Translations under genes and position numbers: made by a program
Notes under the pieces: generated by a model
Database searches by the model: none
Seen by the model: only the letters and a program-made list of their open reading frames with translations
What the model was told of the DNA's origin: nothing
Origin: Clostridia bacterium
Lineage (GTDB): Bacteria > Bacillota > Clostridia > Christensenellales > UBA1242
NCBI GenBank assembly: GCA_017619495.1
Contig: JAFZSF010000024.1
Span: 33,740 to 97,739, forward strand
DNA length: 64,000 nucleotides
Direction of reading: 5' to 3'
Shown: piece after piece, positions 1,021-38,845 of the stretch
How positions within the stretch are numbered: position 1 is the first letter of the stretch
Layout of the letters: the number at the start of each line of letters is the position of its first letter

Positions 1021-1096
1021 TGGTGGAAGTTATAGGGCTCGAACCTATGACCTACTGCTTGTAGGGCAGTTGCTCTCCCAACTGAGCTAAACTTCC
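1021..1096 (-). tRNA. tRNA-Val (anticodon UAC), encoded CCA, unusual C at position 33
   Basis: Reverse complement GGAAGTT-TA-GCTC-AGTTGGGA-GAGC-A-ACTGC-CCTACAA-GCAGT-AGGTC-ATAGG-TTCGAGC-CCTAT-AACTTCC-A-CCA folds as a full cloverleaf. Overall very similar to Bacillus tRNA-Val(UAC). Confidence 0.85.
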
Positions 1097-33988: not shown

Positions 33989-35794
33989 TTACTCCGATTT
34001 TGATAACAAGTGATATTTTTTACGATCAAAATATTCTTGGCGTTTACCGGCATGATAATTAGCAACGGGGCGCAAAAAACCTACCACACGGCTCCATACT
34101 TCGGTCACTGTACCACAGTGAGGACAATGCCACTGTTCACCCGTCAAATAACCATGAGTGGGACAAATTGAGAAAGTAGGCGTGACAGATAGGTATGGTA
34201 AACGATAATGTTGAAAAACTTTTTGGATTAAATTTTTAACGGCACCAATGTCATCCAATTTTTCACCGGTATACAAATGCACCACCGTACCACCCGTATA
34301 TAGACTCTGCAATTCATCTTGTAGATTTAACATCAACCAAATGTCATCGGTATACCCCACTGGCAATTGTGTACTGTTAGTGTAATACGGCGCTTCGTTA
34401 TTACCCGCCGTGATAATTTGTGGATAAATTTTACGATCCAACACCGCTAAACGACTGGCAGCAGTTTCCGCGGGCGTGGCTTCTAAATTATAAACATGTC
34501 CGGTAGTTGTTTGGTACTCACTTAATTTTTGACGCAAATAGTGCATGACCTTTAACGCGAATTGCTGTCCAAGTGCGGTATCTAAACCAACTCCTTTTAA
34601 GTTCAATAAACATTCCTGCATGCCTACAATCCCAAGCGTACTAAAATGGTTATACCAATAACTACCGGTCCGTTGCTTTACCCCTTGTAAATAAAAGGCA
34701 CTATACGGGTATAACCCCGCCACAGTTTGTTGTTCCACTAATTGGCGTTTGATTTCCAAACTGTTTTTAGCCAAATCCGCAAGTTTACCGAGGCGTACGA
34801 AAAAATCATTTTCATCACTAGCCTGATAACCTAAACGCGGCAAATTTAAGGTCACCACACCGATGCTGCCTGTAAGCGGATTAGACCCAAATAAACCGCC
34901 ACCTCGTTTACGCAACGCGCGTAAATTTAAGCGTAAACGACAACACATAGAAATAGCGTCCTCGGGACTTAAATCAGCATTAACATAGTTAGCAAAATAA
35001 GGTATCCCATATTTAGCCGTCATGGCAATAATTTGGGTCATAACCGGACTATTCCAGTCAGTATCCTTGGTAATATTAATGGTCGGAATCGGAAAGGTAA
35101 AGACGCGTCCCTGTCTATCGCCAGCCAACATAACTTTACAGAAGGCTAAATCAATCCGCGCCATTTCAGCTTGGTAATCACCATAGGTCGTTTCCTGCAT
35201 TTCGCCACCCAACACCACCAGTTGTTCTCGCAGTGTCGGCGGACATTGAACATCTAAGGTCAGATTTGAAAATGGGCATTGAAAACCACTGCGAGTAGCT
35301 ACATTCATATTAAAGATAAAATCGTACATCAAGGTTTCAAGGTCAGTATCATTTAGTTGGTCATGACGCACAAAAGGAGCCAAATAAGTATCAAATGAGG
35401 ACCATGCTTGCGCCCCCGCGGCTTCCCCTTGTAAAGTAAAGGTCGCGTTGACAATTTGGTTTAACGCTTCCCGTAAAGTACGGGCGGGCGCTGCCGCGAC
35501 TTTTCCCGCCACACCAGTGAAACCAAGTACCAGTAATTGATGCAAGTCCCAACCCATACAATACGGCCCGAAAAAGCCTAAATCGTGTATATGCAACGCG
35601 CCACTGCGATGAGCCTGTGCAATGTCAGCGGGATAAACTTTGGTTAAAGCATATTCCTTAGTCACGGCTTCACGCAAAGATAAATTCAAACCACCGACTG
35701 ACCGTCCTGTATTGGCATTATTCTTCACAACGAAATCGTTACCATATAAATATTGGTCAAATAAATTGATGACAAAATCTTGACTGTCCATCAA
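33989..35794 (-). CDS. nrdD: anaerobic ribonucleoside-triphosphate reductase
   Basis: 601 aa; C-terminal zinc site CPHCG and a glycyl-radical region SRVVGFLRPV. Confidence 0.9.
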   Translation of the reverse strand: MMDSQDFVINLFDQYLYGNDFVVKNNANTGRSVGGLNLSLREAVTKEYALTKVYPADIAQAHRSGALHIHDLGFFGPYCMGWDLHQLLVLGFTGVAGKVAAAPARTLREALNQIVNATFTLQGEAAGAQAWSSFDTYLAPFVRHDQLNDTDLETLMYDFIFNMNVATRSGFQCPFSNLTLDVQCPPTLREQLVVLGGEMQETTYGDYQAEMARIDLAFCKVMLAGDRQGRVFTFPIPTINITKDTDWNSPVMTQIIAMTAKYGIPYFANYVNADLSPEDAISMCCRLRLNLRALRKRGGGLFGSNPLTGSIGVVTLNLPRLGYQASDENDFFVRLGKLADLAKNSLEIKRQLVEQQTVAGLYPYSAFYLQGVKQRTGSYWYNHFSTLGIVGMQECLLNLKGVGLDTALGQQFALKVMHYLRQKLSEYQTTTGHVYNLEATPAETAASRLAVLDRKIYPQIITAGNNEAPYYTNSTQLPVGYTDDIWLMLNLQDELQSLYTGGTVVHLYTGEKLDDIGAVKNLIQKVFQHYRLPYLSVTPTFSICPTHGYLTGEQWHCPHCGTVTEVWSRVVGFLRPVANYHAGKRQEYFDRKKYHLLSKSE

Positions 35795-35825: not shown

Positions 35826-36086
35826 TTATTTAGCAGCTAATGCTTGGGTCAAGGCTTTTGCTAACTGATCAGGACAACTAGTACCGCGTCCACGGCAATC
35901 AATTCCTTTTAATTTAGTAATTAATTGTTGCGCATTTTGACCTTCCGCCAAAGTCGCAACCCCGACCGTATTACCGGGACAACCACCGATAAACTCGACA
36001 TTATGCACAACATCTTGTTCATCTAACATAAAACGAATTTGCATCGAACAAACTCCTTTGGGCTGATAGTTAAACTGACGCATCAT
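35826..36086 (-). CDS. TSCPD-domain protein (TIGR03905-like)
   Basis: 86 aa; GGCPGN..TSCPDQLA; commonly found next to nrdD. Confidence 0.75.
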   Translation of the reverse strand: MMRQFNYQPKGVCSMQIRFMLDEQDVVHNVEFIGGCPGNTVGVATLAEGQNAQQLITKLKGIDCRGRGTSCPDQLAKALTQALAAK

Positions 36087-36648
36087 CGTGATCCTCCCCT
36101 TCTACCAAATGATTATAGATAAATTCATAAACCTCGGGCGCCATATCCTTCCAACGCGCCGCTGCACGCATCGCATCGGCACGAGACGGCACACGCAATT
36201 TTAATTCCATCAAATTATACGGACGACCAGTATAATCTTTAATCATGAAAACCGCAGTCTGGGTACCATCGGAGTTTTTGAAATAATCAATGCGGTATTC
36301 CTGACTGCGTTTCATACGCAATTTGTTTTCGTCGGTATATTTAATAATGCTTTCACGAATGGAAGCCGGAATTTTTGTCCAAAAATGGGCTAAACAGTCG
36401 CGACCTTCTTTGGTTAATTGGTACATTAAATCACCAGACGAAGTTTTACCAACCACGAATTTGACATCAACAATTTGCGCCAAAGCTTCGCGGTAATCCA
36501 TGTACGACATCAAATCAGGATTGGACATAATAATTTCGGACAAGGTATTTTCTGACAAAGGAATATCCATCTTTTCAAAGATGAAAAGCAAAATAATTTT
36601 GCGGGTTATCTCATCTGCGACAAAATAAGTACTACGATTAGTGTTCAC
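36070..36648 (-). CDS. DUF4364 family putative transcriptional regulator
   Basis: 192 aa; N-terminal winged-helix-like ITRKIILLFIFEKMDIPLSENTLSEII. Confidence 0.65.
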   Translation of the reverse strand: MNTNRSTYFVADEITRKIILLFIFEKMDIPLSENTLSEIIMSNPDLMSYMDYREALAQIVDVKFVVGKTSSGDLMYQLTKEGRDCLAHFWTKIPASIRESIIKYTDENKLRMKRSQEYRIDYFKNSDGTQTAVFMIKDYTGRPYNLMELKLRVPSRADAMRAAARWKDMAPEVYEFIYNHLVEGEDHDDASV

Positions 36649-38845
36649 CAGTCAAATTATATAATAGTTCCTTGAATCTGGCAAGTTTCTCTTGTTCCTG
36701 TTGCACCAAGGTAGCCGGTGCCTTAGCCAAAAACCCTGTGTTTGCTAACATTTTGGACGAACGCGCGATTTCCGCACGATAATGCTCCGCCAAAGCTTGA
36801 TTATCGACCGGGGTTACCACAGGTTCGGGCTTGGACTTAGTCTGCGGTTTACATTCTTCAATGTATTTGTCGCAGAAATCAGTCCAGAACCATTGTTGCA
36901 ATTCATTCGCCGCAATCCCGAATTCATACTTTTCGTAACGACGAGTAATGGTACGGATAATCTTATTCAAACTGGTTTGTAACCAATGCTTAGACCCTTT
37001 AACTGGGGTTGGGAACGGTTCAAAGGCTAAATCAGTATCATGTCCTAATTCGTGCCAAATTTGTTCGGTAATATATGGTGCAATCGGATGTAACATTTTT
37101 AAGAAACTTTCCAAAGCTGTTACTAACAAAGTATTATCTTTGTGCATTAAAACGAATTTAGTCGCATTCCAAATTTTATTCATGAAATAACGGGCTTTAG
37201 TAATTTTTTCGTCGCCGTAATTAGGGTCACGATCCAAACGCGAACCAAACAATAACGAATAACGCAAAACATCACAACCGTGCTGTTCGATAATATCTAA
37301 CGGGTCAATCCCATTACCTAATGATTTACTCATCTTACGACCTTGACTGTCGCGTACCAATCCATGTAATAAGACCGTATGAAATGGTAATTGTTGCGTG
37401 TGATATAAACCCGAAAATACCATACGAATAACCCAGAAGAAAATAATTTCATAGGCAGTAACCAACACATCGGTCGGATAGAAATAATCAAAATCGGCTT
37501 GATTTTTGTTCAAAGTCACAAACGGCCACAGTGCCGATGAGAACCAAGTATCCAACACATCGGTTTCACCTTCAATCGGAATGCGGTGTCCCGAAATCAG
37601 TTGACGCGAAATACACCAATCCTTAATATTGTTCAACCAATGCAAATAAATCTTTTGGAATTTCTTTGGCACAATGTTTAGTCCGTTATTTAACGCCGCA
37701 ATCGCCGGTTGCGCCAAATCATGCATTTTAACAAACCATTGTTTGGAAATGGCAGGTTCAACCGTTTGATGACAACGGTAACATTGCCCCACATTGGAAA
37801 CATGTTCTTTGGTAGCCACCAACAGTCCTTGTGCTTGTAAATCAGCCACGACCGCCGCACGGGCTTCCGCGACAGTCATACCGGCATATTTACCAACATA
37901 AGCACCAAATAACTTACCGTTTTCATCAATCACTTTAATATGCGCTAAATGGTGGCGTTCCGCTACTTCATAGTCGTGATGGTCATGCGCGGGCGTAATT
38001 TTCACTGCTCCGGTACCAAATTTCATATCCACCGTTTCATCAGCAATGACTGGAATGGTACGGTCAGTTAACGGCAATGGAATTGATTTGCCAATTAGGG
38101 CTTGGTAGCGTTGATCATTGGGGTTAACCGCAACCGCGATATCACCAAACAGAGTTTCCGGACGCGTCGTTGCCACGCGCAACGGTCCATATTGAATCGT
38201 CCAAATTTGGCGTTTGACTTCGCTGTATTCAACTTCAATTTCCGATAAGGCGGTATGACAGGTGGGACACCAGTTAATCATGCGTTCACCTTGATAAATG
38301 TAACCGTCCTTGTACAAACGATGAAAAGCCTTGTTAACTTCCGCCTTACAATGGTCGTCCATCGTAAAAGTAAAACGCGTCCAATCGCAAGATAAGCCCA
38401 AGCGTTTAAATTGGTTACAAATAATCGCTGAATAATGGTCGTACCAATTTTGAATGCGTTCCATGAATTGCTCACGGGTTAAATCCTGCTTATTCAAACC
38501 TTCTTTTTTCAATTCTTCCACAACCTTAGCTTCGGTCGCAATCGCCGCATGGTCAGCACCGGGCAACATCAAGGTTTCGTAACCTTGCATGCGTTTGAAA
38601 CGAATCAATGCATCAATAATGGTACAGTTAAAAGCGTGACCGATGTGTAACTTACTGGTAATGTTCGGCGGTGGCATAATCACCGTAAAAGGTTTTTTAT
38701 CGCGATTTACATTGGCTTTGAAAACATTATTTTCCACCCAATGTTGGTTGTAATAGGCCTCACACGCCTTGAAATCAAAAATTTTATCCACAAATAGTAG
38801 TTTACTATAAACCGTACAGTTCTGCAACCTGTTCCCTGGTTGCAA
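36638..38845 (-). CDS. valS: valine--tRNA ligase, shortened, with a rearranged anticodon-binding domain
   Basis: PPPNITSKLHIGHA, editing domain TTRPETLFGD..GTGAVKITPAHD, KMSKS, C-terminal GFLAKAP coiled coil. The true start is uncertain (possibly the GTG at 38791, just after the ftsK stop). Confidence 0.85.
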   Translation of the reverse strand: MQPGNRLQNCTVYSKLLFVDKIFDFKACEAYYNQHWVENNVFKANVNRDKKPFTVIMPPPNITSKLHIGHAFNCTIIDALIRFKRMQGYETLMLPGADHAAIATEAKVVEELKKEGLNKQDLTREQFMERIQNWYDHYSAIICNQFKRLGLSCDWTRFTFTMDDHCKAEVNKAFHRLYKDGYIYQGERMINWCPTCHTALSEIEVEYSEVKRQIWTIQYGPLRVATTRPETLFGDIAVAVNPNDQRYQALIGKSIPLPLTDRTIPVIADETVDMKFGTGAVKITPAHDHHDYEVAERHHLAHIKVIDENGKLFGAYVGKYAGMTVAEARAAVVADLQAQGLLVATKEHVSNVGQCYRCHQTVEPAISKQWFVKMHDLAQPAIAALNNGLNIVPKKFQKIYLHWLNNIKDWCISRQLISGHRIPIEGETDVLDTWFSSALWPFVTLNKNQADFDYFYPTDVLVTAYEIIFFWVIRMVFSGLYHTQQLPFHTVLLHGLVRDSQGRKMSKSLGNGIDPLDIIEQHGCDVLRYSLLFGSRLDRDPNYGDEKITKARYFMNKIWNATKFVLMHKDNTLLVTALESFLKMLHPIAPYITEQIWHELGHDTDLAFEPFPTPVKGSKHWLQTSLNKIIRTITRRYEKYEFGIAANELQQWFWTDFCDKYIEECKPQTKSKPEPVVTPVDNQALAEHYRAEIARSSKMLANTGFLAKAPATLVQQEQEKLARFKELLYNLTGEH

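Follow-up and report, generated by a model that had tools for sequence, protein, structure and literature searches.

The 64,000-nucleotide stretch of contig JAFZSF010000024.1 analyzed here (hereafter the window) belongs to the genome of a Clostridia bacterium, a 0.84-Mb bin of 37 contigs obtained from a short-read metagenome and 90% complete. On its minus strand lies valS, the gene of valyl-tRNA synthetase (ValRS), in which two adjacent segments of the anticodon-binding helix bundle stand in reversed order. The valS coding sequence occupies positions 36638..38791, stop codon included, and specifies 717 amino acids (aa) from a GTG codon. It forms part of an uninterrupted reading frame at 36638..38845 (minus strand), which confirmed the continuous frame reported in a preliminary description of this DNA. 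The 735 aa given there match the open reading frame (ORF) as tracked but not the size of the protein, the ORF carrying an 18-aa upstream extension. Residues are numbered below according to the 735-aa ORF (P0001) unless stated otherwise; numbers in the protein (P0002) are lower by 18.

The product was recognized by both NCBIfam valS equivalog models, NF004349 (866.5 bits versus a cut-off of 704) and TIGR00422 (821.4 bits versus 612.1), and scored far under the respective cut-offs of the IleRS, LeuRS, and MetRS models. The class I active-site signature HIGH (38636..38647, minus strand; ORF 67-70, located by motif position and by alignment with Thermus thermophilus ValRS, PDB 1GAX) and the KMSKS signature (37322..37336, minus strand; ORF 504-508, located in the same two ways) are intact. 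The CP1 editing domain (37808..38188, minus strand; ORF approximately 220-346) matched Pfam PF13603 as well as 1WKA and 1WK9, with E=3e-29 for ORF 220-346 against the isolated T. thermophilus ValRS editing domain 1WKA, and both of its editing motifs, the threonine-rich TTRPET and GTGAVKITPAHD, are present. The C-terminal coiled-coil tRNA-binding arm (36650..36802, minus strand; GFLAKAP motif, Pfam PF10458) corresponds to residues 815-845 of the T. thermophilus enzyme (Tth) and to AlphaFold2 helices 664-683, 685-690, and 693-714 of P0002. The possibility of a second valS, raised earlier, found no support in the window genome, where a single ValRS-like gene was detected and the other matches reached 24-39% identity.

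In the canonical ValRS chain, helix alpha1 of the bundle is followed by alpha2 and alpha3 (block A), then by alpha4 and alpha5 with an extended tail (block B), a junction domain, and the coiled coil. The order found here within the bundle was alpha1, alpha4-alpha5, alpha2-alpha3. Alignment with 1GAX by phmmer paired ORF 20-424 with Tth 4-414 and ORF 425-570 with Tth 447-594, then block B (ORF 576-617) with Tth 670-710, block A (ORF 619-671) with Tth 607-659, and finally ORF 692-722 with Tth 815-845. Helix alpha1 with its NKIWNA motif (37145..37213, minus strand; AlphaFold2 helix 527-549 of P0002, approximately Tth 575-594) occupies its usual position. Block B (36995..37135, minus strand; ORF 571-617), which comprises alpha4, alpha5 (LHP..PYITEQIW), and the extended tail, corresponds to AlphaFold2 helices 554-567 and 572-581 and joins alpha1 via a turn of 3-4 residues instead of standing in its canonical place after block A. 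Block A (36839..36994, minus strand; ORF 618-669), made of alpha2 and alpha3 (FCDKYIE; AlphaFold2 helices 603-620 and 624-647), comes after block B and not, as in canonical enzymes, after alpha1. All signature motifs of the bundle (NKIWNA, FCD.YIE, and P.ITE..W) are retained.

The matches of the two blocks to the distant 1GAX sequence were each weak (i-Evalues of 0.0014 and 0.25). The closest canonical-order relative, P0022, an N-terminally shortened metagenome protein, was used as the reference in BLASTP comparisons of the blocks alone: block A matched P0022 residues 425-470 with E=1e-24 and 72% identity, and block B matched residues 479-520 with E=8e-14. BLASTP of the whole tail against a canonical-order relative returned two high-scoring segment pairs that cross. 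The Pfam profile Anticodon_1 (PF08264) scored 84.5 bits against a cut-off of 25.1 and was split into two separate stretches, with profile positions 2-54 falling on the later segment, ORF 620-672. These profile and pairwise alignments upheld both the swapped segment order and the motif assignment of the two segments in the preliminary description; the block boundary it had set at 37003/37004 was displaced by a trivial 9 nt. The swapped order in the anticodon-binding bundle of this ValRS is genuine.

A collinear valS homologue was found in 18 of 18 other species-level genomes of the genus, at 64-93% identity, and the genus genomes searched contained one ValRS-like gene each. Block B preceded block A in the 17 genomes in which the tail was assembled; the remaining gene is cut by a contig end. 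Among the 120 best database proteins 21 had the swapped order, with tail identity down to approximately 50%. The metagenome-assembled genomes (MAGs) with this order originated from buffalo, deer, goat, sheep, and other gut or rumen samples and, judging from their GenBank titles, from several groups and assemblers. Three further DNA studies, of bovine, goat, and sheep gut, supplied Logan contigs that each bridged positions 36506 to at least 37395; point changes were their only differences from the window, and neither indels nor joints were present. The B/A junction was also crossed by a 337-nt contig (36756-37092) of a metatranscriptome library from sheep gut; DNA carry-over is possible, and this contig was not counted as proof of expression. 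No direct repeats were found in 36600-37300. The earlier suggestion of a helix-bundle permutation is thus borne out by all 17 evaluable genus genomes and by the metagenome proteins, whereas the assembly artifact proposed beside it is contradicted by the independent contigs that cross both junctions.

Among the genomes and proteins sampled, the swap was seen in this clade only. In a family sample of 81 genomes it was seen in only two, both of the genus, and it was absent from the 79 other family genomes sampled, representing 57 other genera. All non-clade proteins among the best 120 from a search of 5.8 billion proteins and among the best 150 representatives from a HMMER scan of 1.84 billion proteins had the canonical order, and full-text literature searches brought up no account of a synthetase with a permuted anticodon domain. 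Three MAGs with GenBank titles of "Prevotella sp." (loci L045, L047, and L048) carry a Clostridia-type swapped valS of 70-92% identity, and these titles are probably taxonomic mislabels of the bins. Some of the swapped proteins are named by NCBI only as "class I tRNA ligase family protein".

Across the genus, dN/dS was 0.04-0.09 for block A and 0.06-0.11 for block B, close to the 0.04-0.07 of the catalytic core, and rose to 0.19-0.32 (relaxed) in the linker before the coiled coil, all these figures being rough as dS was saturated. Both blocks are under purifying selection near the level of the catalytic core. The whole-genome ARAGORN search detected two tRNA-Val genes, a UAC copy at 1021..1096 of the window (minus strand) and a GAC copy on another contig, both with a canonical cloverleaf, A35-C36, A73, and an encoded CCA. 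The features found include determinants listed for E. coli ValRS (PMC11571807). The sequence data point to a functional valine-tRNA ligase with predicted enzymatic activity.

AlphaFold2 modeled the full-length protein with a predicted local distance difference test score (pLDDT) of 91.8, rising to 95-98 in the bundle, with alpha4 and alpha5 at approximately 95. Helices alpha1 to alpha5 were all modeled at pLDDT >90, with an extended segment at P0002 582-602 between alpha5 and alpha2 and the coiled coil at 664-714; the only low-confidence segment was the linker, with pLDDT <50 at P0002 654-660. The bundle alone, predicted from an alignment of swapped-form sequences only, reached a pLDDT of 91.4 and a predicted template modeling score (pTM) of 0.85, and the whole model superposed on 1GAX with a template modeling (TM) score of 0.76. 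In searches with the predicted bundle, LeuRS and IleRS chains aligned with model residues 1-82 (alpha1 and block B) over spans of approximately 140-180 residues, omitting their own A-equivalent (78-82 residues, root-mean-square deviation (rmsd) 2.6-3.4 Å, Z approximately 5), and 1GAX aligned model residues 1-131 to its residues 564-659 (alpha1 and block A, with B omitted; 83 residues, rmsd 3.3 Å, Z approximately 5). The structural aligner is sequential and cannot place both blocks at once; such a split is expected if the geometry was kept and the connectivity changed. Because a Z of only about 5 is also reached by unrelated helix bundles, the structural argument rests on the ranges aligned rather than on Z and is supportive, not decisive.

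The "minimized architecture" noted in the preliminary description was also correct, although it is older than the swap. The insertion said to be missing between GHRIP and DVLDTWF is indeed gone: the ISRQ-to-DTWF spacing is 20 residues here versus 47 in canonical family members, so that approximately 27 residues of the zinc-knuckle insert, including its CxxC...CxxC motif, have been lost at 37562..37576 (minus strand). The region reported as absent ahead of the coiled coil proved to be the C-terminal junction domain, an alpha/beta domain of approximately 90-100 residues, there being no counterpart of Tth ~711-814. In AARS Online this domain of IleRS and ValRS is named "CTD-IV" and the helix-bundle domain "ABD-CRIMVLG" (PMC11580382). 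The stretch between the bundle and the coiled coil is only about 17 residues long. A Pro/Lys-rich flexible linker of variable sequence across the genus (36803..36838, minus strand) connects the end of alpha3 with the coiled coil, at the position of block B and the junction domain of canonical enzymes.

Within the family (more than 58 genera, genome size approximately 1 Mb), the C-terminal part of ValRS forms a gradient of reduction. From KMSKS to the C-terminal end there are 352 residues in canonical ValRS, ~317 in genus g18, ~262 in the canonical-order minimal forms (g15, P0022, P0023, and P0025), and ~230 in the swapped forms. The zinc-knuckle deletion is common to all reduced forms, including the canonical-order sisters g15 and g18, and the junction domain is lost partly in g18 (~810 aa) and fully in g15 (~736-740 aa); since both losses are shared with canonical-order sister lineages, the minimization must predate the swap. 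The swap is the last step of a stepwise reduction in which the zinc knuckle was lost and then the C-terminal junction domain. This series of stepwise ValRS minimization with the canonical block order is made up of loci L027-L030 and proteins P0022-P0025, from other genera of the same family and several of them from termite-gut MAGs. In a tree built from the unswapped N-terminal 560 columns, the swapped forms and the canonical-order P0022 constituted one clade (SH-aLRT support of 99), sister to the g15/g18 group of canonical-order forms. Given this clade and an approximately unbiased (AU) test that did not reject monophyly of the swapped forms (p=0.47), the simplest reading of the sequences is a single origin of the swap after the loss of the junction domain. 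In helix alpha3, the Trp of the near-invariant FCDWY(I/L)E motif (ORF 657-663, window approximately 36857..36877) is replaced by Lys, Glu, or Val throughout the swapped clade and in P0022 and is kept in the g15 and g18 sisters; the replacement may represent an adaptation before or alongside the swap.

Some swapped metagenome proteins carry extra residues exactly at the new junctions. In P0018 and P0021 an insert of 47-68 residues, low-complexity, Cys/Asn/Phe-rich, and with an internal repeat, lies at the alpha1/B junction, and in P0020 a 37-residue Ala/Lys-rich low-complexity insert lies at the B/A junction. These inserts were considered as remnants of a duplicated block A, but their local alignment with it was no better than that of shuffled sequences (p=0.05-0.95). 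All that the inserts show is that the new junctions form loops in which insertions are tolerated. No duplicated intermediates (A-B-A-B, A-B-A, or B-A-B) occurred among the best 120 proteins and best 150 representatives of the two large searches described above. Where a single stretch of a representative ran from alpha1 to A, the protein proved to have the canonical order and a long alpha1-alpha2 insert.

Altogether, valS of the window very probably encodes a genuine and functional valine-tRNA ligase with a rewired anticodon-binding helix bundle. A local misassembly of a gene with true A-B order could be suspected on the sole ground that a bin of short-read metagenome data is the source of the window; the recurrence of the order in 17 other species-level genomes and in numerous metagenome proteins of diverse studies and assemblers, the bridging contigs, the lack of repeats on which an assembler could switch, and the purifying-selection pattern of the block substitutions leave this explanation with a practically negligible probability. 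That the motifs were mis-assigned, the two segments having no homology to blocks A and B of canonical enzymes and the order being swapped in appearance only, is extremely improbable: the weak single-block matches to 1GAX would allow it, but it is contradicted by the crossed matches to close canonical relatives, by the two stretches of Anticodon_1, and by the structural alignments that put each block on its canonical counterpart. As the enzyme has lost both its zinc knuckle and its junction domain, one could think of a real swap in a crippled or non-catalytic ValRS, with valylation carried out by another enzyme. We consider this very improbable given the single ValRS-like gene in the window genome and in each genus genome searched, the intact HIGH, KMSKS, and editing motifs, the valS equivalog cut-offs passed, and the low dN/dS of the core.

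An active enzyme with a real swap might also pack its bundle in a different way, with altered recognition of the anticodon or the tRNA elbow, AlphaFold2 having imposed a familiar fold. Changes of connectivity can move helix packing, the coiled coil starts here from another helix via a disordered linker, the alpha1-alpha2 loop of ~15 residues is gone, and the Trp of FCDWY is substituted in the clade. This explanation nevertheless appears improbable in view of the high AlphaFold2 confidence obtained with the swapped-only alignment, the separate superposition of alpha1 plus B and alpha1 plus A on solved enzymes, and the canonical look of the tRNA-Val identity elements. Several points weigh against the rewired functional ligase that we favor. 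Apart from the saturated dS and the low structural-alignment Z, its three-dimensional equivalence with canonical bundles is drawn from AlphaFold2 models that may be biased to the learned class Ia fold. The best tree places the canonical-order P0022 inside the swapped clade, without resolution. The duplication route outlined below finds support in neither a duplicated intermediate nor a DNA repeat, and, with the genome 90% complete, a second valS on its unassembled DNA is conceivable in the strict sense.

In the rewired ligase, the chain runs through alpha1, B, A, a flexible linker, and the coiled coil; the helices would keep their usual spatial places and directions, as in the models, with the connecting loops alone being different. 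Two geometric features would make such rewiring feasible: one end of the bundle holds the C-termini of alpha1 and alpha3 together with the N-termini of alpha2 and alpha4, and the extended tail of B returns along the bundle to where alpha2 begins. With the helices in place, anticodon reading (A35 and C36, through the conserved alpha1 and alpha3 motifs), aminoacylation, and editing would proceed as in an ordinary ValRS, and the coiled-coil arm would be suspended by a flexible tether at the end of alpha3. The swap presumably arose once, in the ancestor of the ruminant-gut clade, following deletion of the zinc knuckle and the junction domain in the course of genome reduction. The most likely route would be a tandem duplication of the A-B segment after which the outer copies of A and B were lost, i.e., permutation by duplication, of which no trace is left; as no duplicated intermediate was found, we can only infer this course of duplication and deletion. 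It is rather unlikely, though worth considering, that the swap was a compensatory re-tethering and not a neutral accident. Without the junction domain, an arm starting from the end of block B might have been unable to reach the tRNA elbow, and placing B ahead of A could let the arm depart from alpha3 by way of a flexible linker at its end, with the grip on tRNA restored or altered. If so, tRNA-Val would be bound in a mode unlike that of any solved class Ia complex.

The enzyme shares with bacterial type-1 ValRS (T. thermophilus, PDB 1GAX/1IVS) the Rossmann core with HIGH and KMSKS, CP1, the stem-contact fold, and the coiled coil, and its bundle holds the same five canonical helices and signature motifs. 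It differs in the reversal of A and B, in the missing zinc knuckle (Tth ~415-446) and junction domain, and in its length of 717 aa versus ~860-880. The nearest proteins on the tree are the canonical-order minimal sisters (~736-740 aa; P0023, P0025, L027/L028, and P0022), which have the same two losses. Those sisters, however, have the A-B order, an alpha1-alpha2 loop of 12-25 residues, and a helical segment that connects B with the coiled coil. In the swapped form the order is B-A, the alpha1-B turn is short, and a Pro-rich linker joins A and the coiled coil.

Few proteins are as conserved as the aminoacyl-tRNA synthetases, and to our knowledge the class Ia anticodon-binding bundle has been regarded as topologically invariant from ArgRS to ValRS. 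The point of CP1 insertion differs between bacterial and archaeal LeuRS. Permutations by duplication and deletion, in which fold and function are kept and the chain order is changed, are represented by swaposins versus saposins and by DNA methyltransferases. Unlike these, the ValRS described here is not a whole-protein circular permutation but a two-block swap between fixed flanks (alpha1 and the coiled coil) within one small domain of a class Ia synthetase, and the full-text searches yielded no comparable case. Topologically it represents a new variant of a known enzyme, a conserved and selected segment swap in an essential, minimized, and otherwise orthodox ValRS. The tRNA-reading domain of an essential enzyme can therefore change its chain connectivity in nature, and with swapped and unswapped sisters up to 72% identical in block A, the family offers a natural experiment on the tolerance of helix-bundle folding to topology. 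It also provides a worked example of stepwise synthetase minimization in ~0.8 Mb genomes and a minimal ValRS scaffold of 717 aa. On the practical side, profile-based annotation breaks the domain into two matches.

The true start of valS is most likely the GTG at 38791, because it lies 14 nt past the ftsK stop, relatives have an equivalent start, and the source gene call (P0002) gives a 717-aa protein. The ORF track sets the start further upstream, at a TTG (38845), and thereby overlaps ftsK by the final 41 nt of that gene (region 38789..38845, minus strand). No obvious Shine-Dalgarno sequence was seen in the 14-nt gap between the ftsK stop and the GTG, which suggests translational coupling or weak initiation. 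On the other side of valS, a 192-aa ORF (36070..36648, minus strand) begins 11 nt ahead of the valS stop, so that the two reading frames overlap. It is followed by an 86-aa Cys-rich ORF (35826..36086) and then by an anaerobic ribonucleotide reductase gene (33989..35794).

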